Positions 7,676 to 30,419 of a stretch of 30,419 nucleotides of DNA are shown one piece after another. The stretch is from an uncultured delta proteobacterium (GTDB lineage: Bacteria; Desulfobacterota; Desulfobacteria; Desulfobacterales; JAFDCJ01): assembly GCA_963769935.1 (NCBI GenBank), contig CAVYNY010000002.1:1-30419 (forward strand), read 5' to 3'. The first letter of the stretch is position 1. The number at the start of each line of letters is the position of its first letter. Under the pieces are notes generated by a model. The model worked only from the letters and a program-made list of their open reading frames with translations, searched no databases and had not been told where the DNA came from. The position numbers and the translations under genes are program-made.

Positions 7676-8629
7676 CTATATGGACATCCCATATTCCTTG
7701 TGTAAAAATTCCAGATTGCCCTGGGCATTGTCATACTTCGTTTTCCCATAATTATAAAAATCGAACTTAATTGTTGATATGTTCAGTTGTATCAAACTCC
7801 ATAAAAACCAGAAGATATCGGGAAATGGCTTAAACAGGTCGATGAAATAAAGGGTTTTGTCAAATTCCCGGTCATGGCAGTATTCCTTGACAATGGCTTT
7901 TTCTGATTTGCGCGGCGCGAGAACTTCCTGGAACATGTCGGCAATGTCGTAATACTTCGGCGCCATGCCGGCATACTCCCAGTCAATGATATACAGGGGT
8001 GAATCATACAGGTGCTCAAAACCCTCTTTGATCAGGATAAAATTATCTGCCAGCAGGTCGTTGTGGCAGGCGACATACTGTGACGGCGGCATGCTGATGA
8101 TTGCATCCAATTGTTCCAGGCGCCGGATGGTTCCGGCAATGTCGAATTCGGGATAGTTGACGTTGAGTCCATCCAGGATTGAATCCATTTTTTTGACTTC
8201 GCCCAGAGGGTTGAACATTTTTTTAAACTCGACGCCGCTGTTGTGGATCTTTCGGATCGGATCCACAATTTTGGCGTGCAGCGATTCGTCTAAAAAGTTG
8301 GCATTTTTCAGTACAATGCTATCGTCGATAAAATCGACGATTGTGACACCCAACTCGGGCATATATCTTACCAATCTGGAAGAGACGCCGATCTTAGCCA
8401 TTTCGGACAGGGCATGCGCCTCATAATCCCGGTTGATGAAAAGTTCGGTTTTGTCGCCGTAGATACGGACCGACAGATCCCCTTTTTCGGATTTGACGCG
8501 ATACAGTTTATTGGTGATTCCGCCGCTCAGCTTCGATATTTCAATGTCGCAATCTTTCCACTCCGGGTAAATTCCAACGAATACGCTATCATTGAATTCC
8601 ACTTCCAAAAGGTTCTTTTTTCGCTCCAT
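7676..8629 (-). CDS. Choline/ethanolamine kinase family phosphotransferase (LicA-like)
   Basis: LSGGITNKLY, VRIYG..TELFINRDYE, CHNDLLADNF (Brenner motif), IIDWEYAG. Start moved to MERKK (8629), which follows GAAGGAG. Confidence 0.92.
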   Translation of the reverse strand: MERKKNLLEVEFNDSVFVGIYPEWKDCDIEISKLSGGITNKLYRVKSEKGDLSVRIYGDKTELFINRDYEAHALSEMAKIGVSSRLVRYMPELGVTIVDFIDDSIVLKNANFLDESLHAKIVDPIRKIHNSGVEFKKMFNPLGEVKKMDSILDGLNVNYPEFDIAGTIRRLEQLDAIISMPPSQYVACHNDLLADNFILIKEGFEHLYDSPLYIIDWEYAGMAPKYYDIADMFQEVLAPRKSEKAIVKEYCHDREFDKTLYFIDLFKPFPDIFWFLWSLIQLNISTIKFDFYNYGKTKYDNAQGNLEFLHKEYGMSI

Positions 8630-8776
8630 ATAAAAAGCTCCTTCGACTCGTCGTAGATGCAGCCCGGACATTCCGGAACCAAACATCAAATTTTTATCGC
8701 AGACGCAGGACTAGACCCTATGAATTTATTCTTTGGACGATGGGCCCGCGGGAATGATCGCCAGTGGCCGGCCTTA

Positions 8777-10099
8777 TCAATCGAAATATAAATTGGGCAG
8801 CCACAGAGCTATCTGGGGAAACACCATCAAAATAACCAACCCCACTATCATCACCAGCACAAAGGGTACGATTGAACGGTAAATATCCCCCAGCGTTATC
8901 CCGGGAGGTGCCATGGCTTTCATCAGAAACAGGTTATAGCCGAAAGGAGGCGTCATGTACGCTATCTGACAGGTTACCGTATAGAGAACACCAAACCAGA
9001 TCGCGTCGAAGCCCAGCTTCTGCACCAGGGGAACGTAAAGGGGCGCGACAATGATAAGCATGGCCGTATCGTCCAGAAACATGCCCATCACGATGAAGGT
9101 AAATTGCATCATGATGATGATTCCCCATGGACCGAATCCCCACTCTTCCCGGAAGAGAAGCTCGATGGCATGTACGGCGCCGAGACCGTCAAAAACGGAG
9201 CTGAAGCCAAGCGCCGCCAGAATAACCCACATAAACATGCAGCTGACGCTCAGCGTTTCTCTCAGGGTATTTAAAAGCACCTGCCGGGTCAGCCGGCCTT
9301 TGAAGAGCGCAGCAAGGGTCGTCACGGCCGCACCGACAGCCGAACATTCCACAAGACTGGTGTAGCCCAGCAGGAACAGTCCGGTCATGGAAAAGATAAT
9401 GACAAGCGGAAGTATCCCGGCCTGGAGCAACCGCAACCGTTCTCCCCAGCTTATCTGCTGTCGCTCTTCCTTGGATAACGCCGGTCCCATGCTTGGCTGG
9501 AGTGCACATCGAATCATGATGTACGCGATCATCAGCCCCCCCAACAGGAGACCGGGAAAAACACCGGCCAACCAGAGCCTGCCGACCGGTTGTCTGGCGA
9601 TCATTCCATACAGGACGAGGACTACGCTGGGCGGAACCATGATGCCCAGGGAACTGCCGCCTTGGACGACACCGGTTATCATTACCTTGTCATAATTGCG
9701 CTTAAGCATTTCCGGCAGGGCGATACTGGCGCCAATCGCCATGCCGGCGACACTCAGGCCGTTCATGGCCGCGATTGCCATCATAAGTCCCATGGTTCCG
9801 ATGGCCAAACCACCATTGATCGGTCCCATCCAGACATGGAACATCCGGTAGAGATCGTCCGCAATTCCAGACTCGGAAAACATATACCCCATGAAAACGA
9901 ACATCGGCAACGTGAGGAGCGCATACCAGTTCATCAGGACAAAGGCTGCGTGAAACGGCATCTCCGAAGCGCCCTTGCCCCATAATAAGAGCGCGAAAAT
10001 CGTAGCCACCGCTCCTATCGCAGCAAAGATTCGTTGTCCGGTAATCAGCATGACCATCATGGCCACAAACATCAGGATAGCGATAAGTTGGTAGCTCAT
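8777..10099 (-). CDS. dctM: TRAP transporter large permease
   Basis: Highly hydrophobic 440 aa; LGIMVPPSVVLVLYG and YMTPPFGYNLF motifs. Confidence 0.95.
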   Translation of the reverse strand: MSYQLIAILMFVAMMVMLITGQRIFAAIGAVATIFALLLWGKGASEMPFHAAFVLMNWYALLTLPMFVFMGYMFSESGIADDLYRMFHVWMGPINGGLAIGTMGLMMAIAAMNGLSVAGMAIGASIALPEMLKRNYDKVMITGVVQGGSSLGIMVPPSVVLVLYGMIARQPVGRLWLAGVFPGLLLGGLMIAYIMIRCALQPSMGPALSKEERQQISWGERLRLLQAGILPLVIIFSMTGLFLLGYTSLVECSAVGAAVTTLAALFKGRLTRQVLLNTLRETLSVSCMFMWVILAALGFSSVFDGLGAVHAIELLFREEWGFGPWGIIIMMQFTFIVMGMFLDDTAMLIIVAPLYVPLVQKLGFDAIWFGVLYTVTCQIAYMTPPFGYNLFLMKAMAPPGITLGDIYRSIVPFVLVMIVGLVILMVFPQIALWLPNLYFD

Positions 10100-10100
10100 G

Positions 10101-10610
10101 TTATAGTTCCTCCCCTCTCGCCGTCGCCAGGTCTTTGAAAAATACGGCGACGGCCTGCAGCAGCATCAGCAAGATTCCGATGACCATAACACACTTGATG
10201 GGCGCCAGCGGCGGCCCCCAAGGAGTATAGTTTCTCTGCCCGTATCGTAACGCATATTCAAGGCCGGAAAGGCCGCCGATGAGGAGAAACACCACATAGA
10301 AGATAAGGAAAGGGGCGGTAATGAGATCGACCACGGCCTTGCCCTTGGTCGACCACCGGCTATAAAAAAGATCCATTCTCACATGCCCCTTCAGAATCAC
10401 GGAGTAGCCGCCGCCCAGCAAATAATAAGCGGCCATAAGGAATTCAATGATTTCCACTACCCATATGTGGGGTTTATTAAAGAAGGCTCTCGATAGGGAT
10501 TCAAACACCAAGATAGCCGTCATAACCAAAACTATATACATTGAAAACTCACCTATGAACCGATTCACAGCCTCAATCCATCTCACGTAAGCCCGTATCG
10601 CTTTCGGCAT
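10101..10610 (-). CDS. dctQ: TRAP transporter small permease
   Basis: 4 TM helices, GHVRMDLFY motif, directly upstream of dctM. Confidence 0.93.
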   Translation of the reverse strand: MPKAIRAYVRWIEAVNRFIGEFSMYIVLVMTAILVFESLSRAFFNKPHIWVVEIIEFLMAAYYLLGGGYSVILKGHVRMDLFYSRWSTKGKAVVDLITAPFLIFYVVFLLIGGLSGLEYALRYGQRNYTPWGPPLAPIKCVMVIGILLMLLQAVAVFFKDLATARGEEL

Positions 10611-10788
10611 ATTAAACTCCTTGCTTAATGTTCCTCAGATCCCGATTCATCCTAAATCCATATAAACAACACTGATAGAGCCCGGATAAAATTTCGCTGC
10701 CCATCCCGGGCTGAAACAGACATCCCCGACTCAGCCCGTCCCTTGACCTCCAATCGACCGGGCTGGTTCGAATGAGCTTTCGAGCAAA

Positions 10789-10832
10789 GCAGCCTTCCCG
10801 GCCTGATTCTGCCGCGGGCCGGGAGAGGCTGC
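10789..10832. other. GC-rich stem-loop in the dctP-dctQ spacer
   Basis: GCAGCCTTCCCGGCC pairs with GGCCGGGAGAGGCTGC. Two weaker hairpins lie at about 10678-10765. Confidence 0.6.
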
Positions 10833-10868
10833 CGCTCTAAGTGTCCTCAACGCCTGGCGTATAATGCA

Positions 10869-11918
10869 TCAATAGCGGTAGGGAGGACCGGCCTTTTTCA
10901 TGGTTTCATCGTATTCCTTCAGTATTTCCACAACCTTCTTGTTTCTGGGGCTCTTTTGGGCAATCTCGTCCCAGAATTTGAGCGCTTCCATTTCCACTTG
11001 CTTCCACTCTGCTTCGGGGATGGAGGTCAGCTCCAGCTTGCCGCCCTTGACGCGGTAATGGGCCTCGCCCCACCAGTACCAGTATTGTCTGTGGTAATGG
11101 GAATAGTCGATTGCCATTCGGAACAGGGCCTGCAGGTGCTTGGGCACTTTATTCCAGGAGTCGGTGTGAACAAAATATGAGCCCACCCAGGCGCCGGAGA
11201 TGGGGTTCGTCAGGTAGTATTTGGTCACATCAGCCCAGCCGACCGTGTAGTCTTCGGTGATGCCCGACCATGTAATGCCGTCCAGATCATGCGTCTGCAG
11301 GGCCATTTGAACATCCTCGTAGGCGAGGGTCACCGGAACAACCCCGAACCGCTGCATGAACCTGCCTCCAGTGGGGAACATATACACCCTCAGGCCCTTC
11401 AGATCTTCCAGGTGCCGAATCGGCTTGATGGTGGCGAAATTGCAGGGATCCCAGCTTCCCGCACTCAGCCAGGTGACCCCCGGTATTTCGGAGTAGGCTT
11501 CCTCCCAGATTTTGTTGAGCCCATATTCGTTCCAGAGTACGGGGACATCGAGGGAGTAGCGCAGCGCCAGAGGAAAATACGCGGCAAATATGGCTACATC
11601 TACAGGCGCCGCAATGGAGTCATCATCGCTCTGGACCGCGTCAACGGTACCTTTCTGCACGGCCCGGAACAGCTCACTCTGTGGTACCAGCTCATCGGCC
11701 GTGTACAGGTCGATCTGCATCTCGCCATTGGCTGCCTCATTAAACATTTTAATTGAGGGTTTGATGACCTCCTCAGCCAGGGCCGCGCCGGCGTATGTCT
11801 GCAGGCGCCATCGAATGGTCGTTTTCTTTTGTGCAATCACATAGGGCGCGTTCACCGCGGTGGCTGCTACGGCAGCAGCTCCCATTCCAGCTTTTTTAAT
11901 AAAATCGCGTCTTTTCAT
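10869..11918 (-). CDS. dctP: TRAP solute-binding protein with Tat signal
   Basis: MKRRDFIKK Tat signal, WRLQT, EDLKGLRV motifs; AGGAGA RBS; operon with dctQM. Confidence 0.93.
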   Translation of the reverse strand: MKRRDFIKKAGMGAAAVAATAVNAPYVIAQKKTTIRWRLQTYAGAALAEEVIKPSIKMFNEAANGEMQIDLYTADELVPQSELFRAVQKGTVDAVQSDDDSIAAPVDVAIFAAYFPLALRYSLDVPVLWNEYGLNKIWEEAYSEIPGVTWLSAGSWDPCNFATIKPIRHLEDLKGLRVYMFPTGGRFMQRFGVVPVTLAYEDVQMALQTHDLDGITWSGITEDYTVGWADVTKYYLTNPISGAWVGSYFVHTDSWNKVPKHLQALFRMAIDYSHYHRQYWYWWGEAHYRVKGGKLELTSIPEAEWKQVEMEALKFWDEIAQKSPRNKKVVEILKEYDETMKKAGPPYRY

Positions 11919-24510: not shown

Positions 24511-25053
24511 ATGGCTATATTTGGCAAAAAGGAAAAGGATGAGAGGGCGCCCGTCGTTCAACCGCCGCCGATTCCGAGAGACATACCCAAGGAACCGAAA
24601 AAGAGTCCGGTAAGAGATACGACACCTGTAGCGGCAAAGGACACCACCAAAGAAACGACCTATCTGGGCAAAAATTTAAAAATCACCGGTAATGTATCCG
24701 GCGAAGGAAACTTGATCTTATTAGGCACCTTTGATGGAGAATTCGATTTAAAGGGTCAATTAAAGGTTGCCCAGGGTGCCAGGATCAAAGGAAACGTCAA
24801 AGCGACTTCTGTATCCATCAACGGCAATGTAGAAGGAACAATTCTGGCAAGCGAAAGAATACTGCTTGATAGCACAGCTGCAATGAAGGGACGGCTTGTG
24901 ACGCCCAAGATCTCCATTCAAGACGGTGCCGTTTTTGACGGAGAGCTCCAGATGAGCGGAAAATCGGAACAGGCACCCAGGATAGCCGCTCCCCAGCCGA
25001 AAATGGCGCCGAAAGAGACCTCTAAAACACCGCCTGTTTCTGAAATAAAATAG
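24511..25053 (+). CDS. Bactofilin (polymer-forming cytoskeletal protein)
   Basis: TYLGKNLKITGNVSGEGNL..G.FDG...ISIQDGAVFDG beta-helix; MAIFGKK membrane-targeting-like N-terminus; Pro-rich tails. Confidence 0.92.
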   Translation: MAIFGKKEKDERAPVVQPPPIPRDIPKEPKKSPVRDTTPVAAKDTTKETTYLGKNLKITGNVSGEGNLILLGTFDGEFDLKGQLKVAQGARIKGNVKATSVSINGNVEGTILASERILLDSTAAMKGRLVTPKISIQDGAVFDGELQMSGKSEQAPRIAAPQPKMAPKETSKTPPVSEIK

Positions 25054-25221
25054 ATATTACCGTTCACGGTTTAAAGGCTCATGGTTCAAAGCTTTGGATT
25101 TCCGGATTAATCCCAACTTTAACCGCAGCTCACAAGCTCAGCATGATTATTAAATAGCTTAAAGCTAATCCAGTAGGATAACCCTGAACCTTGGAACCTA
25201 TATTAGCAAGGAGACATTTAA

Positions 25222-25605
25222 ATGGACAAAGGCAATGCGACCGGCTCAACCTCTTTGTTGAGCAAAGAAATAAAGATGGAAGGCGAGATCCAGGGCAGTG
25301 AAAACCTTCAGGTGGAAGGCCGATTCAAGGGAACTATCAAACTTGCGGGTGATTTATATATTGGTCCGACCGGTGTTGTCGACGCGGATATTGAAGCCGA
25401 TAATGTCATTATTCAGGGACAAATCAACGGTAATGTTTTAGCTCGCAAGCAACTCCAGATTCAATCATCCGGCAGACTTTTGGGAGACTGCACGGCGCAA
25501 TCCATTGACATAAAGGAAGGCGCTCTGTTTGAGGGTCGCTCCAAAATGATCAGATCGTCTGCAGCCTCCACCGGTGGCGGCGCGGTTTCCGGTGCCAAGA
25601 GTTAA
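25222..25605 (+). CDS. Bactofilin (polymer-forming cytoskeletal protein)
   Basis: EGEIQGSENLQVEGRFKG...IDIKEGALFEGRSKM; GGAGA RBS. Confidence 0.92.
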   Translation: MDKGNATGSTSLLSKEIKMEGEIQGSENLQVEGRFKGTIKLAGDLYIGPTGVVDADIEADNVIIQGQINGNVLARKQLQIQSSGRLLGDCTAQSIDIKEGALFEGRSKMIRSSAASTGGGAVSGAKS

Positions 25606-25637
25606 CCCAAGTGAGGTAAAAGGTAAAAGGCTAAAAG

Positions 25638-25726
25638 CTGGGTGCCCGCCTGCGCGGGCATGACAGTAATCATATCTATATGATATTTATTAATCTATTG
25701 TCATTCCCGCGCAGGCGGGAATCCAG
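25638..25726. repeat. Inverted pair of REP/dRS3-like palindromes
   Basis: GTCATTCCCGCGCAGGCGGGAATCCAG (25700-25726) and an inverted variant CTGGGTGCCCGCCTGCGCGGGCATGAC (25638-25664). Confidence 0.8.
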
Positions 25727-25787
25727 AAAGATGGTAGAATCGGACTTTTTAGGGGATCATCAGTCTTTACCCTTTAACCTTTACCCT

Positions 25788-26291
25788 TTAGCCTCCGCTT
25801 TTCACCTTATTCGTCGGATCTCCTTCCGCCACCATTGTGTTGAGAACTTCCCGCTCCGGGGGTCCTGGCAGAATACCGGCCAAATCCGCTTCCAGGACAA
25901 TGGTGCCGTCCTGGTTGCGATAAATTGCCTGAGCCCGGGCACGGTTGTGGTCGTCGATTTCACTGATGATGAACGTGCACTCAATCGTATCACCCAAATA
26001 AACCGGCCGCTTGAAATGGAAGTTCATTTCTGAAGCCAGCCATCCAATCTGTCCACCGATTTCCGTAAGGATGCTGCCCACCAGCAGTCCATGACAAATC
26101 CGCCCATTGAATTTTTTGGTTTGCACAAACCGTTTTTCAAAATGAATCGGGTTGTAATCGCGCGTGACATGGGCAAATGCCAATATATCCTCTTCCGTGA
26201 ACTGTCGCGAAACGACAAAGGTTTCCCCGACAGTTAAACCCTGAATAGTTTTTTGGCGGATTGCTGATTTCGCATTAGTACCAGTCTTCAA
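25788..26291 (-). CDS. MaoC-family (R)-specific dehydratase, hotdog fold (start uncertain)
   Basis: FAHVTRDYNPIHF, ICHGLL, FKRPVYLGDTI. The only nearby in-frame start is a TTG overlapping vapC. Confidence 0.85.
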   Translation of the reverse strand: MKTGTNAKSAIRQKTIQGLTVGETFVVSRQFTEEDILAFAHVTRDYNPIHFEKRFVQTKKFNGRICHGLLVGSILTEIGGQIGWLASEMNFHFKRPVYLGDTIECTFIISEIDDHNRARAQAIYRNQDGTIVLEADLAGILPGPPEREVLNTMVAEGDPTNKVKSGG

Positions 26292-26670
26292 TTTTCAGAT
26301 TCTCTATTTTTTTGAATTCTCTTACATTGTGGGTAGCCAATATACTGTTGTTGGCCATGGCAGATGCCGCAATTAAAATGTCATAAGGTCCTATCAGACT
26401 ACCCTGCCGCTCCAGTTTTATTCTGATCTCTGCGGCACACTTTGCCTCCGATTGCCCAAAAGGAATGATGTTGACCAATGACGTAAGCTCTTGGAGCTGT
26501 TTTTTCCTTTTGGTCGGAGATGTTGATTTCCCAATTCCGACTTCCAGTTCAAAAATAACGATAGCTGGAATTGTAATATTGTTGGGAGCCTTGTTTAGCA
26601 GTCGATTTGCAACATTTCCCTGGCCTTTAAAGAAATAAATTAGAATGTTTGTGTCAAGACAGTAAATCAT
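26275..26670 (-). CDS. vapC: PIN-domain toxin
   Basis: LDTNILI, ELEVG, IGPYDILIAASA, LATHNVREF, IEDW. Confidence 0.95.
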   Translation of the reverse strand: MIYCLDTNILIYFFKGQGNVANRLLNKAPNNITIPAIVIFELEVGIGKSTSPTKRKKQLQELTSLVNIIPFGQSEAKCAAEIRIKLERQGSLIGPYDILIAASAMANNSILATHNVREFKKIENLKIEDWY

Positions 26671-26897
26671 AGGGGCTCTCTCTTCGCATCTTTACCCATT
26701 CCGGTTCGAAGTTCTTCGGCTGTTGGCAGATCCCTCCAGGCGCCGGAAAGTTCTATTATTTGATCAGGCCATGTTTGAGACGTTTTTTCCTTTATCAGAT
26801 CGGAAATCCATTTGCTCTTGGAGACGCCTCTTTTTTTTACAATATTGAGCATTTTTTTTTCCGTTTCGGAATCCAAATAAATGGTTACCTGTCCCAT
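26667..26897 (-). CDS. vapB: RHH/CopG-type antitoxin
   Basis: QVTIYLD...GVSKSKWISDLI ribbon-helix-helix; ATGA overlap with vapC; GGAGGTG RBS. Confidence 0.88.
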   Translation of the reverse strand: MGQVTIYLDSETEKKMLNIVKKRGVSKSKWISDLIKEKTSQTWPDQIIELSGAWRDLPTAEELRTGMGKDAKREPL

Positions 26898-27499: not shown

Positions 27500-28354
27500 T
27501 TAAACCTTATACCTCTTTACCATCTCCATCACACTATCATCCGGCCTGAACGCCAATTCGCAGCAGGGTACAGCGGTTGCAATTTCCTCAAAAAGTCCCA
27601 TCGTAAATTCCATACCCGCTGCATCCCAGTAGGGTGGAAAAGAGCATTGCAACATCCTAAGCACCGCTTCGACTCTGGATAGCGCTTGAATGGCGTTCTT
27701 TGGGCTGTGACGCAGGAAAAAGATTCTTTCCAATTTTACACCCTGCGGAGAGCCGAATTTGGCCTCGCCGTGCCAGGGTGTGCCGTACATCCGGAATTCT
27801 CCATCGACATAACGCACAATGGTTCGATCGTCACTTAAAACGGTTGCCGCTTTTGTCCGATCCCACAAGTTGGCCAGCGTGCTCTTGCCGGCGCCGGATT
27901 CGCCGGTAAACAGCATGCCTTTTCCGTTATAGTCAATGCCACAGGCGTGAATGATAACCCCGCAGCCCTGGGCCAGGTAGTTTATCATCAACAGTTCCAT
28001 GGTAGGTCCAAAGAAAGGATCAGCACCATGACCGCTTGGTTCGGTAAAATAAAGGTCGGCTCGTTTAAATTGAGGAGATAGGACAAGCAATCTTTGCAGA
28101 TCGGAATATGAGTCAAAAATTTTAACTACCGATTTGTCGCCGTTTCGGTAAAGACTCCAGATCGGAGGGCTGTCGAAACCTCTATTGCCCAATTCCAATT
28201 CCGGCGCACCGAGATGCAGCCCCAGGTGAAGATCAGCCCGGCCGTCAAAAATAAAAGGCTGGTATGACGGAGGCGTATCAAATTCGAACTGTCCGGATTG
28301 CCATTTAACAGCCGTCGTTATATCGGCGATTTTGATCTTGAGATCTGAAGGCAT
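27500..28354 (-). CDS. HPr-kinase-related P-loop protein (RiPP-cassette kinase, ScmC/PadeK-like)
   Basis: IIHACG, Walker A GESGAGKST, LSDDR, YGTPWHGE. Start moved to MPSDLK (28354) because the longer ORF translates intergenic repeats. Confidence 0.82.
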   Translation of the reverse strand: MPSDLKIKIADITTAVKWQSGQFEFDTPPSYQPFIFDGRADLHLGLHLGAPELELGNRGFDSPPIWSLYRNGDKSVVKIFDSYSDLQRLLVLSPQFKRADLYFTEPSGHGADPFFGPTMELLMINYLAQGCGVIIHACGIDYNGKGMLFTGESGAGKSTLANLWDRTKAATVLSDDRTIVRYVDGEFRMYGTPWHGEAKFGSPQGVKLERIFFLRHSPKNAIQALSRVEAVLRMLQCSFPPYWDAAGMEFTMGLFEEIATAVPCCELAFRPDDSVMEMVKRYKV

Positions 28355-28649
28355 GAACCGAAAAAAGTAAAAGGCTAAAGGTGAAAGGCTAAAGACAATA
28401 GGTAAAACGTAAAAACGGCAGAGGCTGCCATTTTGGAGTTCAGCATTTTTTATTTGGACATTGGTTTTTCCTGCTAACTTACAGTCCGACTGAGGAAATA
28501 CTGCGGCGCCGGTGCCAAGGCCTACCAGCATCAAGTGGCCAATCGCAGAAATTGTAAAATTCGACCAGCCATCCTGTTCTAGTCTCCGGGGCTTCCAAGC
28601 CAATAGATCTTTCGCCTTGTACCTTTAACCTTTATCCTTTAACCTTATT

Positions 28650-28814
28650 TTATGATCCCGGCCCTAAGCATGGCTGAAATGTCGGAGGGCCGCAGCCCAC
28701 CCCGGAGGGACCACCGATGCCGGAGGTCTTACAAACCGCCAGCACAGCCGTCTTGGCATCCAGTCTGATTTTCCTAATTTCAGGTTTCGCGTATTTCTTC
28801 TTTTGGCTTTCCAT
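28650..28814 (-). CDS. Putative RiPP precursor peptide (54 aa)
   Basis: MESQKKKYAKPEIRKIRLDAKTAVLAVCKTSGIGGPSGVGCGPPTFQPCLGPGS. It has a YxxPxI RRE-binding leader and a 3-Cys Gly/Pro-rich core, and lies between the PqqD and kinase genes. Confidence 0.8.
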   Translation of the reverse strand: MESQKKKYAKPEIRKIRLDAKTAVLAVCKTSGIGGPSGVGCGPPTFQPCLGPGS

Positions 28815-29156
28815 AATTAATCCGCCCTGGAAAATAGCATATCCAGCGTTGTGAACTGTTATTTGAACTTGAGACACTTGTTTGACTAAGGCGCCGGCGG
28901 CTTAATTACTGTATGCTGCGCATATATTTTATTGGTTTATTCGTTATCCGGACACTGGTCTTCTGGGCCTGCGGCCCGTAAGATTGAACTTGGCTATATT
29001 TAGATCCACCTCACGGGATAAATCATTATTTTACAATCAATAAACAAGCTGCACCATCAGCGTTGCCTTGCGCCTTTTATCTTTATTCCGTCGCCTTTCT
29101 CCTTTTACCTCAAACCTATATTCTTCAACCCATTAAACTCAATAAACCCTATAAAC

Positions 29157-29450
29157 TCAATTAACACGAATCACCGCATCAATTTCAATTAAATCATTTA
29201 TAAACTCGTTCAAATCCGCTTCTGCTTCCTGCAGCGACGCCTCATATTCATCCAGGATTTTATCTTTGATGGTTTTCAAATTCCGCTCGCCGTCCAGCTG
29301 CTCCCAAATAAAAGCGCCGATCTCATTTAAATTGTAAATACTGCCCATATCACCGACGTTATCCTTGATGGGAACCAGAATCGTTTCATCCTCGATACGG
29401 CGAAATACAAAGTTTTCATTTCTACGGTAGCATTGTTCCAACTCGATCAT
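29157..29450 (-). CDS. Stand-alone PqqD-family RiPP recognition element
   Basis: FVFRRIEDETILVP...IYNLNEIGAFIWEQLDG...I...I..EYE.....AEADL.EFI..L is the classic PqqD pattern. Confidence 0.93.
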   Translation of the reverse strand: MIELEQCYRRNENFVFRRIEDETILVPIKDNVGDMGSIYNLNEIGAFIWEQLDGERNLKTIKDKILDEYEASLQEAEADLNEFINDLIEIDAVIRVN

Positions 29451-29765: not shown

Positions 29766-30419
29766 CTATGCGCCGTGCGCTTTGGGCAATTTTCTTGGTT
29801 CTTTGGCATTTGGCCTTGCACCTTGCACCCTGCGTCTTTGGCCTTTGGTCTTTTTATTCCCCAGCCACAAGAGTCCGATCAGCGCGAGCAGGCCAAACAG
29901 ACTGCTCATCGGCCATTCGGTAACGAAAAAGGAGGCTTCGGTGGATTCTGAAGTGGAAATAAAACACCCGCTGCGCGCGCCGCCGGTGGTCTGATTACCT
30001 GTTTGCGTTCGGGGTTGAGGTTCCAAGGTGGGACTGAGCACCAGGCTGCGGGGGCCCTCATCGCCGTCGGCGTCGACGGCCGCCACGGTGTAATAGTAGG
30101 TGGCATCGCCGGTCAGGGCCGCTGCCGCTGGCTGCCCAGGCCGGTGTCCACAAACCCGGTGGCGTTCAGGGTCTCGGCATTGAGTTTGATGTAGCCCTGT
30201 CCCGGCCGGCTGCTGCGATAGATGTTGTAGCCGGCCGCCTGCTGCCCGTTGCCGTCGCTGCCCGGCTGCCAGTTCAAATCGATGTCGCCGTTGAGCCGCC
30301 ACAGCCCCTGCAGTGCCTCGGGCCGGCGGGGCAGGGGGACCTTCAATTCCATGGCCGGATCGCCGAAGAGCAGAAACGTTTCACTGACCTGCCGGTAATC
30401 GGCGCTGTCGTTGGCCAGA
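29766..30419 (-). CDS. 3' end of a C25 (gingipain-like) peptidase + FN3 + GCFI/TM-anchored protein, with one frameshift near 30115-30150 (partial)
   Basis: Window edge reads LANDSADYRQVSETFLLFGDPAMELK (C25 terminal LFGDP motif). The FN3 (LNW..GYNIYRS..FVDT) continues in another frame as YYYTVAAVDADGDEG, then GGARSGCFIST, a TM helix and a basic tail. Confidence 0.75.

Follow-up and report, generated by a model that had tools for sequence, protein, structure and literature searches.

Known Phosphopeptide Pathways and the Cassette in the Window

The linear polyphosphorylated peptides (LPPs) of Bacillota are described as products of lppA-K-B-S-D-N clusters (Popov et al. 2026, PMC13381572), and the kinases PadeK, ThcoK, SyanK and PsmK of the paeninodin and pseudomycoidin pathways are described as phosphorylating a C-terminal Ser by means of a His-Lys-Asp-Asp motif (PMC9266682, PMC6993621). 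Here we report on a three-gene cassette from an uncultured delta proteobacterium (assembly GCA_963769935.1, hereafter G000). It lies in a stretch of 30,419 nucleotides, called the window throughout, which is the entire contig C2 (CAVYNY010000002.1) of that genome, and it encodes a PqqD-type protein predicted to be the recognition element (RRE) of a pathway to a peptide made on ribosomes and modified after translation (RiPP), a short precursor peptide and a kinase-like protein. The cassette is real, uncharacterised and widespread, and among known systems it most resembles the LPP phosphopeptide pathway. On balance we favor, as a joint reading, that the window genes for RRE, precursor and kinase form one half of a conserved cluster, that its other half, with the genes for a radical S-adenosylmethionine (rSAM) enzyme, an S26 peptidase, an NTP_transf_5 protein and an ABC transporter, lies on contig C22, and that the product would be a cysteine-modified peptide, phosphorylated and possibly sugar-capped on its C-terminal Ser.

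The likeness to the LPP pathway comprises a discrete RRE, a YxxP leader, an HprK-like kinase, a leader peptidase of the SpI type (Ser-His-Asp), an NTP-transferase, an MsbA-like ABC transporter and a glycan neighborhood. This core set is present in G000, but it is spread over two contigs and the ABC gene is frameshifted. The clusters studied here add an rSAM/SPASM enzyme (60 of 80 loci), whereas radical SAM is absent from the main text of the LPP paper (PMC13381572). The loci are those of the 80 top-ranking among 557 kinase relatives found in genome_contigs; many of their contigs are short, and the cluster genes were counted with profiles built from the same 80 loci. The precursors also differ, since the LPP consensus is YxxPxVLxHQxIxFETxxS, with a variable tail and core Ser3 as the acceptor, while the peptides of this family are marked by AVLxxCK, by three Cys and by a Ser fixed at the C terminus. 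With the paeninodin and pseudomycoidin systems (PadeK, ThcoK, SyanK, PsmK, PsmN) the cassette shares the His-Lys-Asp-Asp kinase, the strictly conserved C-terminal Ser, the NTP-transferase and a YxxPx(L/I/V) leader; in contrast to the lasso pathways, it has no ring Asp/Glu, lasso cyclase or B2 protease, and it has an S26 peptidase and an rSAM enzyme.

The three open reading frames (ORFs) are co-oriented on the minus strand, with intergenic gaps of about 340 and 295 nt, and as the window is a whole contig the cassette lies about 1 kb from an assembly break. The main features are as follows.

29157 to 29450, minus strand: PqqD/RRE protein (P0003), 97 aa, PF05402
28650 to 28814, minus strand: precursor peptide (P0001), 54 aa, with a large homologue family
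28776 to 28793, minus strand: YAKPEI, predicted RRE-binding leader motif (Y8, P11 and I13; peptide residues 8 to 13)
28728 to 28733, minus strand: Cys28-Lys29 after A-V-L-x-x, 20 residues past Tyr8
28668 to 28694, minus strand: Cys41 and Cys49, conserved, with variable spacing
28653 to 28655, minus strand: C-terminal Ser54, predicted phosphorylation site
27500 to 28354, minus strand: HPrK/PEPCK-fold kinase-like protein (P0002), 284 aa from the ATG

An earlier annotation made from the letters of the window, here termed the sequence-only reading, had described three co-oriented genes with these motifs and a non-lasso RiPP-type cassette. The ORFs, the PF05402 match and the motif positions bear out the first claim, and the lack of a ring Asp/Glu, a lasso cyclase and a B2 protease agrees with the second. 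The peptide has no acidic residue past D19, as that reading had stated; its leader/core boundary at Cys28 was an assumption. None of the three proteins reached an NCBIfam cut-off, and the record titles of the nearest kinase relatives name Desulfosarcina, Desulfobacterales and delta proteobacterium.

A Large Precursor Family with a Fixed Cys-Lys and a Terminal Ser or Thr

The precursor P0001 carries YAKPEI at residues 8 to 13 and Cys at 28, 41 and 49, and ends in GS. All 26 candidates of a direct search were homologous to it (63 to 91% identity), with C28-K29, C41 and the terminal GS invariant. A family profile, made from 67 of the 74 precursors found in the loci with P0001 as its first row, recovered 2033 cluster representatives at an E value of ≤0.001 and had matches in 15 of 301 genomes sampled from the phylum. 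Among six same-genus genomes, substitutions in the peptide gene fell mostly at third codon positions, as judged by eye. Judging from its sequence relatives, the peptide is, beyond chance, the product of a real gene of a large family.

The family pattern is YxxPxI…AVLxxCK…C…C…GS, with the consensus YxKPxxxxVxLxxEEAVLxxCK. Tyr8 and Pro11 were invariant in the 67 aligned precursors, and the distance from the Tyr to Cys28 was 20 residues in all 74 locus precursors and in all 150 representatives examined (the best 150 of the 2033, selected by the profile). The conservation of YxxP and CK is partly circular, because the seed pattern demanded both, together with a spacing of 15 to 20; the other features were left free. 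Three Cys from CK onward were present in 68 of the 74 locus precursors, and 146 of the 150 representatives had three Cys. In the former set the first and second Cys were mostly 13 to 16 residues apart and the second and third 3 to 9. The last residue, free of the seed pattern, was Ser in 68 and Thr in 6 of the 74 locus precursors; among the representatives it was Ser in 141, Thr in 8 and another residue in 1, compared with 20% Ser plus Thr elsewhere in the core. The homologues keep the leader motif, the three Cys and the terminal GS whose conservation the sequence-only reading had proposed to examine. At position 18 past the Tyr, the 74 locus precursors had G, A, Q or T, and only 11 of the 74 had an Asp or Glu within 12 residues of Cys28.

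Comparison of P0001 with NCBIfam rendered no family, and the 67 precursors gave only 4 single weak matches (E values of 0.015 to 0.042). Only unnamed clusters were matched in the ESM Atlas. A lipobox reading of L-x-x-C28, which fitted 24 of the 67 precursors, was rejected because the leader contains no hydrophobic region.

Some further peptides resembled the family. Loci L110 to L113 and L117 represent a sister subfamily with precursors of the form WxKPxL…EEAVLxxCK…C…C…S/T and at least two rSAM paralogues per cluster; L110 to L113 have two precursor copies. A similar peptide at L116:7690-7827 had no rSAM, kinase or PqqD profile match within 15 kb, and by eye the large ORFs that flank it resemble genes for peptidase-containing ABC exporters. 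In L066 a second short ORF past the C25 gene (20481-20741) contains YTPPRL along with two Cys, ends in GS and is possibly a divergent precursor.

The Predicted Leader-Binding Protein and the Kinase-Like Protein

P0003 matched PF05402 with 60.8 bits (cut-off, 23.4), and its best Protein Data Bank match was LppB (9x8z; E = 1.6e-4). Its residues N42, D79 and F83 aligned with the leader-binding N33, D70 and F74 of LppB, the numbers being mapped by hand. Among 59 homologues N42 was kept in 56 and D79 in 58, F83 in only 29. Since D70 and N33 of LppB are described as holding the leader Tyr and Pro (PMC13381572), P0003 by analogy very probably binds the YAKPEI leader. The second PF05402 match in G000, a PqqD-like domain in a 127-aa ORF on contig C19 (L120:1489-1872), was set aside; its neighbors are unrelated, and no kinase or precursor was seen within 3 kb.

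For its part, P0002 contains the complete His-Lys-Asp-Asp set, namely, H136, K157 within GESGAGKST (residues 151 to 159) and D175-D176. In 73 kinase homologues H136, K157 and D175 were always kept, and D176 was kept in 71. The AlphaFold2 model (pLDDT, 94.8) had the PEPCK/HPrK fold, with PEP carboxykinases as the top Foldseek matches. P0002 remained under every HprK-related cut-off, and a housekeeping HPr kinase/phosphatase was discarded (TIGR00679, 22.3 versus a cut-off of 240). What points most strongly to the kinase target is the fixed terminal Ser/Thr, which, by analogy with the kinases of the paeninodin type, suggests that the enzyme likely phosphorylates or polyphosphorylates Ser54 of the precursor. 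A second, more distant kinase was observed beside the main cassette in L008, L055, L070 and L078, in some of them with S26, PqqD or rSAM copies.

The Remaining Cluster Genes Are on a Second Contig

Across the 80 loci the precursor was found in 74, PqqD in 68, rSAM/SPASM in 60, S26 in 54, NTP_transf_5 in 48 and C25 in 22. The peptide ORF is thus kept beside kinase and PqqD homologues, as the sequence-only reading had anticipated. In 71 of the 74 loci the precursor lies immediately upstream of the kinase, and 4 of the 6 loci without it have less than 350 nt of upstream sequence. The order PqqD-rSAM-precursor-kinase prevails (47 of 80), and that of the window, PqqD-precursor-kinase, occurs in 13. 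According to record titles, the family is present in Desulfobacterota, Acidobacteriota, Nitrospirota, Aminicenantes, Chloroflexota and others, not in Bacillota.

The same reading had placed an rSAM/SPASM enzyme outside the window and had suggested a genome survey for nucleotidyltransferase and S24/S26 genes. The cognate rSAM gene was located on C22, and both of the others, NTP_transf_5 and S26, are on that contig too. For precursor, kinase, S26 and NTP_transf_5, G000 has a single strong cognate match apiece; among the rSAM matches, the best (285 bits in its first half; next paralogue, 173) adjoins S26 and NTP_transf_5 at C22:335110-338122. The C22 genes comprise those for an AsnB-type amidotransferase, GT4, the MsbA-like ABC transporter, rSAM, S26 and NTP_transf_5. 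No remnant of an rSAM gene was found between PqqD and the peptide, the rSAM profile having no match on C2. A single contig of the same-genus genome G017 holds GT4-ABC-rSAM-S26…C25-PqqD-precursor-kinase-NTP_transf_5 within about 18 kb, whereas in G000, G006, G008 and G018 S26 abuts NTP_transf_5 and the PqqD-precursor-kinase block lies elsewhere. From the linkage in G017 and this shared split layout, the window would hold the displaced half of the cluster.

Among 23 same-genus genomes, the kinase was found in 11, rSAM in 11 and S26 in 12, and the precursor, sought with a single-protein query, in 8. Kinase and rSAM occurred together in 9, neither in 10 and one alone in 4 (Fisher's test, P = 0.003, a value that is overstated because kin are not independent). 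These genomes partly overlap the 80 loci, and therefore the two counts are not independent. The cognate rSAM was present in 12 of 19 genomes examined. Pairwise identities of the cluster parts correlate across loci (Spearman's coefficient, 0.25 to 0.68), a result that was not used as support because shared ancestry explains it.

The S26 peptidase of C22, P0030, has S24, H62 and D99, all kept in 47 of 47 homologues and matching S29, H68 and D93 of LppS; its TIGR02228 score was 42.9 bits, below the cut-off of 51.85. In the supplementary dataset of the LPP paper, the peptidases of this cluster family appear as cluster 3 of the sequence similarity network (SSN), in at least eight rows with the precursor given as "ND" (PMC13381572). 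Over the first 65 residues, one of these peptidases and P0030 differ at 8 positions (by eye). P0030 resembles SSN cluster 3 and not the studied LPP cluster 1. The split layout and the link to C25 surface proteases are new here.

The window genes could instead be a displaced, decaying remnant with no current product, a very improbable explanation in our judgment. Their place at a contig end, the frameshifts in the rSAM gene, the ABC gene and the C25 tail, and the patchy presence of the family would fit it. Nevertheless, none of the three ORFs is broken and each family motif is present, an intact rSAM gene goes with the same split layout in G006, G008 and G018, and the third-position bias of the peptide gene points the other way.

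Proposed Pathway and Chemistry of the Radical SAM Enzyme

In the pathway that we propose, PqqD/RRE would bind the YAKPEI leader (very probable, as stated), the kinase would phosphorylate or polyphosphorylate Ser54 (likely), and the rSAM enzyme, with its seven SPASM Cys, would act on the core (fairly likely). That this last step is a Cys-based cross-link, most likely with the invariant Cys28, is tentative, falling a little short of an even prospect; Cys41-Cys49 may form a second cross-link or a disulfide. The SpI-type (S26) peptidase would then in all likelihood remove the leader with the help of the RRE, as LppS is described as cleaving only with its RRE (PMC13381572). Cleavage is expected between A23 and C28: A23|V24 fits the Tyr-to-P1 distance of LppA, Ala being present at the A23 position in 69 of 74 precursors, and the hydrophobic P3 of LppA instead points to L25-x-x|C28. 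Capping of the phosphate with a sugar or nucleotide by NTP_transf_5 has slightly better than even prospects; PsmN is described as needed for hexose addition on phosphoserine (PMC9266682, PMC6993621). Export to the cell surface by the MsbA-like ABC transporter is evenly balanced, and the neighboring glycan and C25 genes suggest a role in the envelope or biofilm.

Several observations weigh against this reading. As to gene order, in G002 and G003 neither PqqD nor a precursor interrupts S26-kinase-NTP_transf_5, in G012 PqqD-kinase comes without a precursor, the precursor of G020 is apart from both, and no cognate rSAM was found (at E ≤ 1e-60) in 5 of 13 genomes with the gene order of the window. 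As to analogy, LppK, which is the closest among the characterised kinases of SpI pathways, is described as modifying core Ser3 and not the terminus, and LppN as having no detectable effect in a heterologous host (PMC13381572). No residue is conserved as a thioether acceptor among the 74 locus precursors. The rSAM gene of G000 contains three single-base insertions, i.e., three frameshifts in about 1.1 kb, and the best family scores of the enzyme (AhbD, 119.7; NirJ2, 113.5; MftC, 110.4 bits) are all far below cut-off. Finally, the whole chemistry is proposed from genes, motifs, conservation and co-occurrence.

The family scores were obtained with an intact same-genus orthologue, L105:4393-5529, which reached 83, 65 and 58 bits with the thioether models StsB, AlbA and PapB, respectively. 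Of the best-scoring models, AhbD and MftC represent decarboxylases. CxxxCxxC and seven SPASM Cys are conserved in the rSAM family, and its structural model is nearest to PqqE, SkfB, CteB and SuiB, neighbors that do not single out one reaction. Because Cys28 keeps a fixed distance from the leader, it is the likeliest site of rSAM action, and the loose spacing of Cys41 and Cys49 would fit a disulfide as well as a thioether. Alternatively, the same pathway might run with Cys that are not thioether donors, Cys41-Cys49 forming a disulfide or the three Cys a metal site, and with the rSAM enzyme performing other chemistry, for instance cross-linking the invariant Cys28-Lys29 pair or, in the manner of MftC, oxidatively decarboxylating the C terminus. 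We regard this variant as unlikely. The variable Cys spacing, the lack of a conserved acceptor and the higher scores of the AhbD, NirJ2 and MftC models over StsB, AlbA and PapB would speak for it, but those scores mostly reflect the shared rSAM core, the nearest solved structures by sequence and fold include the thioether enzymes SkfB and CteB, and with seven SPASM Cys one iron site would stay open, as in CteB.

The frameshifts bear on a second alternative, in which the rSAM enzyme is dispensable or dead in this strain and its clade and the three genes, with S26 and NTP_transf_5, yield an LPP-like phosphopeptide, linear or closed by a disulfide. Besides the three frameshifts in the rSAM gene, the ABC gene has one, against a background of a single frame change across the remaining 36 matched places (about 38 kb), an excess that makes real decay in this strain possible. 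That no cognate rSAM was found in 5 of the 13 genomes with the window order is in the same direction. In contrast, at all three places the extra base is missing from contigs of other sequencing runs, one of which may represent the source sample. At the third place this was seen in a 212-nt contig with only 2 other differences (about 99% alike), while the first two are covered only by contigs about 93 to 95% alike. Moreover, 9 of 10 same-genus rSAM matches are full length without a stop, the tenth running off a contig end. The frameshifts are probably assembly errors, their being real decay is doubtful, and the alternative as a whole appears quite unlikely.

Relation to Other RiPP Classes

Returning to the preferred reading of a modified phosphopeptide, its gene content was compared with the remaining described classes. 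PqqD, an HPrK-like protein and rSAM are shared with SynChlorMet (TIGR04248-04251) and HPr-rel-A/B, but all scores were far below cut-off: ScmC, 24.2 versus 125; ScmD, 38.7 versus 100; ScmE, 68.9 versus 400; ScmF, 64.8 versus 400; HprK_rel_A (TIGR04352), 21.7 versus 200; and HprK_rel_B (TIGR04355), 34.8 versus 200. Membership in SynChlorMet or HPr-rel-A/B was therefore not supported. Of the sequence-only interpretation, the non-lasso RiPP with an outside rSAM enzyme stood, and the thioether cross-links that it suggested are conjectural: the Cys spacing varies, no acceptor is conserved, and the rSAM enzyme scores far below every sacti/ranthi-synthase model.

A Cys-rich core, the SPASM rSAM fold and RRE dependence recall the sacti- and ranthipeptides (AlbA, SkfB, StsB, CteB, PapB). 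In contrast to these, the rSAM enzyme has no fused RRE and is far below the AlbA, SkfB, StsB and PapB models, and there is no conserved acceptor; lacking both an rSAM model match and a known precursor family, the cassette was not assigned to them. To our knowledge, kinase, S26 and NTP-transferase are not part of the sacti- and ranthipeptide classes. Assignment as a lasso peptide was likewise rejected: leader and discrete RRE are present, while an Asp/Glu at core positions 7 to 9, the cyclase and the B2 protease are absent. The Asn synthase on C22 is a protein of 648 aa with a glutamine amidotransferase domain, and the only PF13471 match in G000 covers 42 of 117 positions inside an unrelated 518-aa ORF. 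Neither lasso cyclase nor B2 protease is among the frequent neighbor families of the kinase loci.

The system would work like LPP and paeninodin tailoring, yet on the features tested it falls outside the lasso, LPP, SynChlorMet, HPr-rel and sacti/ranthipeptide groups. Literature searches found no description of the rSAM-containing family by title or abstract start, and the main texts of PMC10288494, PMC7470986 and PMC12710340 hold no relevant passage; their supplements may list such enzymes. That it is a new RiPP class of many uncultured phyla, combining new rSAM chemistry with a phosphoserine cap, seems a shade more probable than the opposite. The LPP/paeninodin phosphopeptide toolkit would be extended to a much larger unstudied family, with about 2000 precursor clusters at 50% identity, and the added rSAM enzyme is of an unnamed subfamily. 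The parts are small and soluble with sharp predictions (Ser54, Cys28-Lys29), which makes three questions testable: the role of NTP_transf_5, the rSAM chemistry and why such RiPPs adjoin capsule and surface-protein genes. The cluster also persists in two distant pieces, which neighborhood-based mining would misread as an orphan cassette.

The C25 Surface Protein and Genomic Surroundings

Two further features of the window were considered.

29766 to 30419, minus strand: C-terminal end of a large C25 (gingipain/PorU-like) surface protein, in two frames
28412 to 28434, minus strand: terminator-like hairpin in the peptide-kinase gap, at chance level (3 found versus 2.8 expected in shuffles)

A promoter scan of the window gave 0 sites, with 3.7 expected. 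The C25 tail has a GCFIST motif and a hydrophobic tail, and an N-terminal part of at least 2098 aa, with Propeptide_C25, LamG and DUF2341 domains, runs off the end of contig C5. A related C25 protein of 2933 aa aligns with C5 as far as residue 2124 and with C2 from residue 2720 onward, leaving about 600 residues unassembled; from this alignment a C5-C2 junction is inferred.

These surroundings bear on a further alternative, in which the peptide is the primer or linker of a surface structure, its phosphoserine being extended with sugars and the product exported and processed or attached by the C25 (PorU-like) protease. C25 is encoded in 18 of 36 loci of at least 15 kb, often with its catalytic His and Cys motifs, genes for surface glycans are present in 30 of the 80 loci, and glycan or C25 genes are present in 26 of the 36 long loci. 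The invariant Lys29 could also be the P1 site of a gingipain-like enzyme. LPP and paeninodin clusters are likewise described in capsule loci (PMC13381572), and PorU-linked anchoring by way of Wbp-pathway sugars is described in Bacteroidota (PMC7468200, PMC13086638). Nonetheless, C25 is missing from the vicinity in half of the long loci, the glycan genes vary, and proximity may reflect shared horizontal transfer or co-regulation. We regard this alternative as improbable, and equally so its fullest form, in which an rSAM cross-linked, C-terminally phospho-glycosylated peptide released by a signal-peptidase-type enzyme would be a glycan primer, linker or ligand, with C25 recognising the invariant Cys-Lys.

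The C25 surface protein (window 29766-30419 plus C5:48743-55162 in G000; L083:13705-20000) is very large and has LamG, DUF2341, TSP3 repeats and a GCFIST-hydrophobic-basic tail. Before the C25 gene on C5 there are FimT/PilW/PilV/PilX-like minor pilin genes and a PIN-like gene, and a CPBP intramembrane protease beside NTP_transf_5 on C22 could process such tails. Elsewhere in the window, a PIN-domain gene with a short upstream partner (26275-26897) resembles a VapBC-like toxin-antitoxin pair. Two tandem bactofilin genes with a MaoC-like dehydratase gene (24511-26291) are also the neighbors past the kinase in L002, L003, L007 and L010, and a TRAP transporter (DctPQM) is followed by a choline/ethanolamine kinase at 7676-11918. 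A short purine/pyrimidine-biased intergenic element at about 29125-29170 has many matches of 30 to 80 nt genome-wide, and similar tracts flank the peptide and kinase genes.

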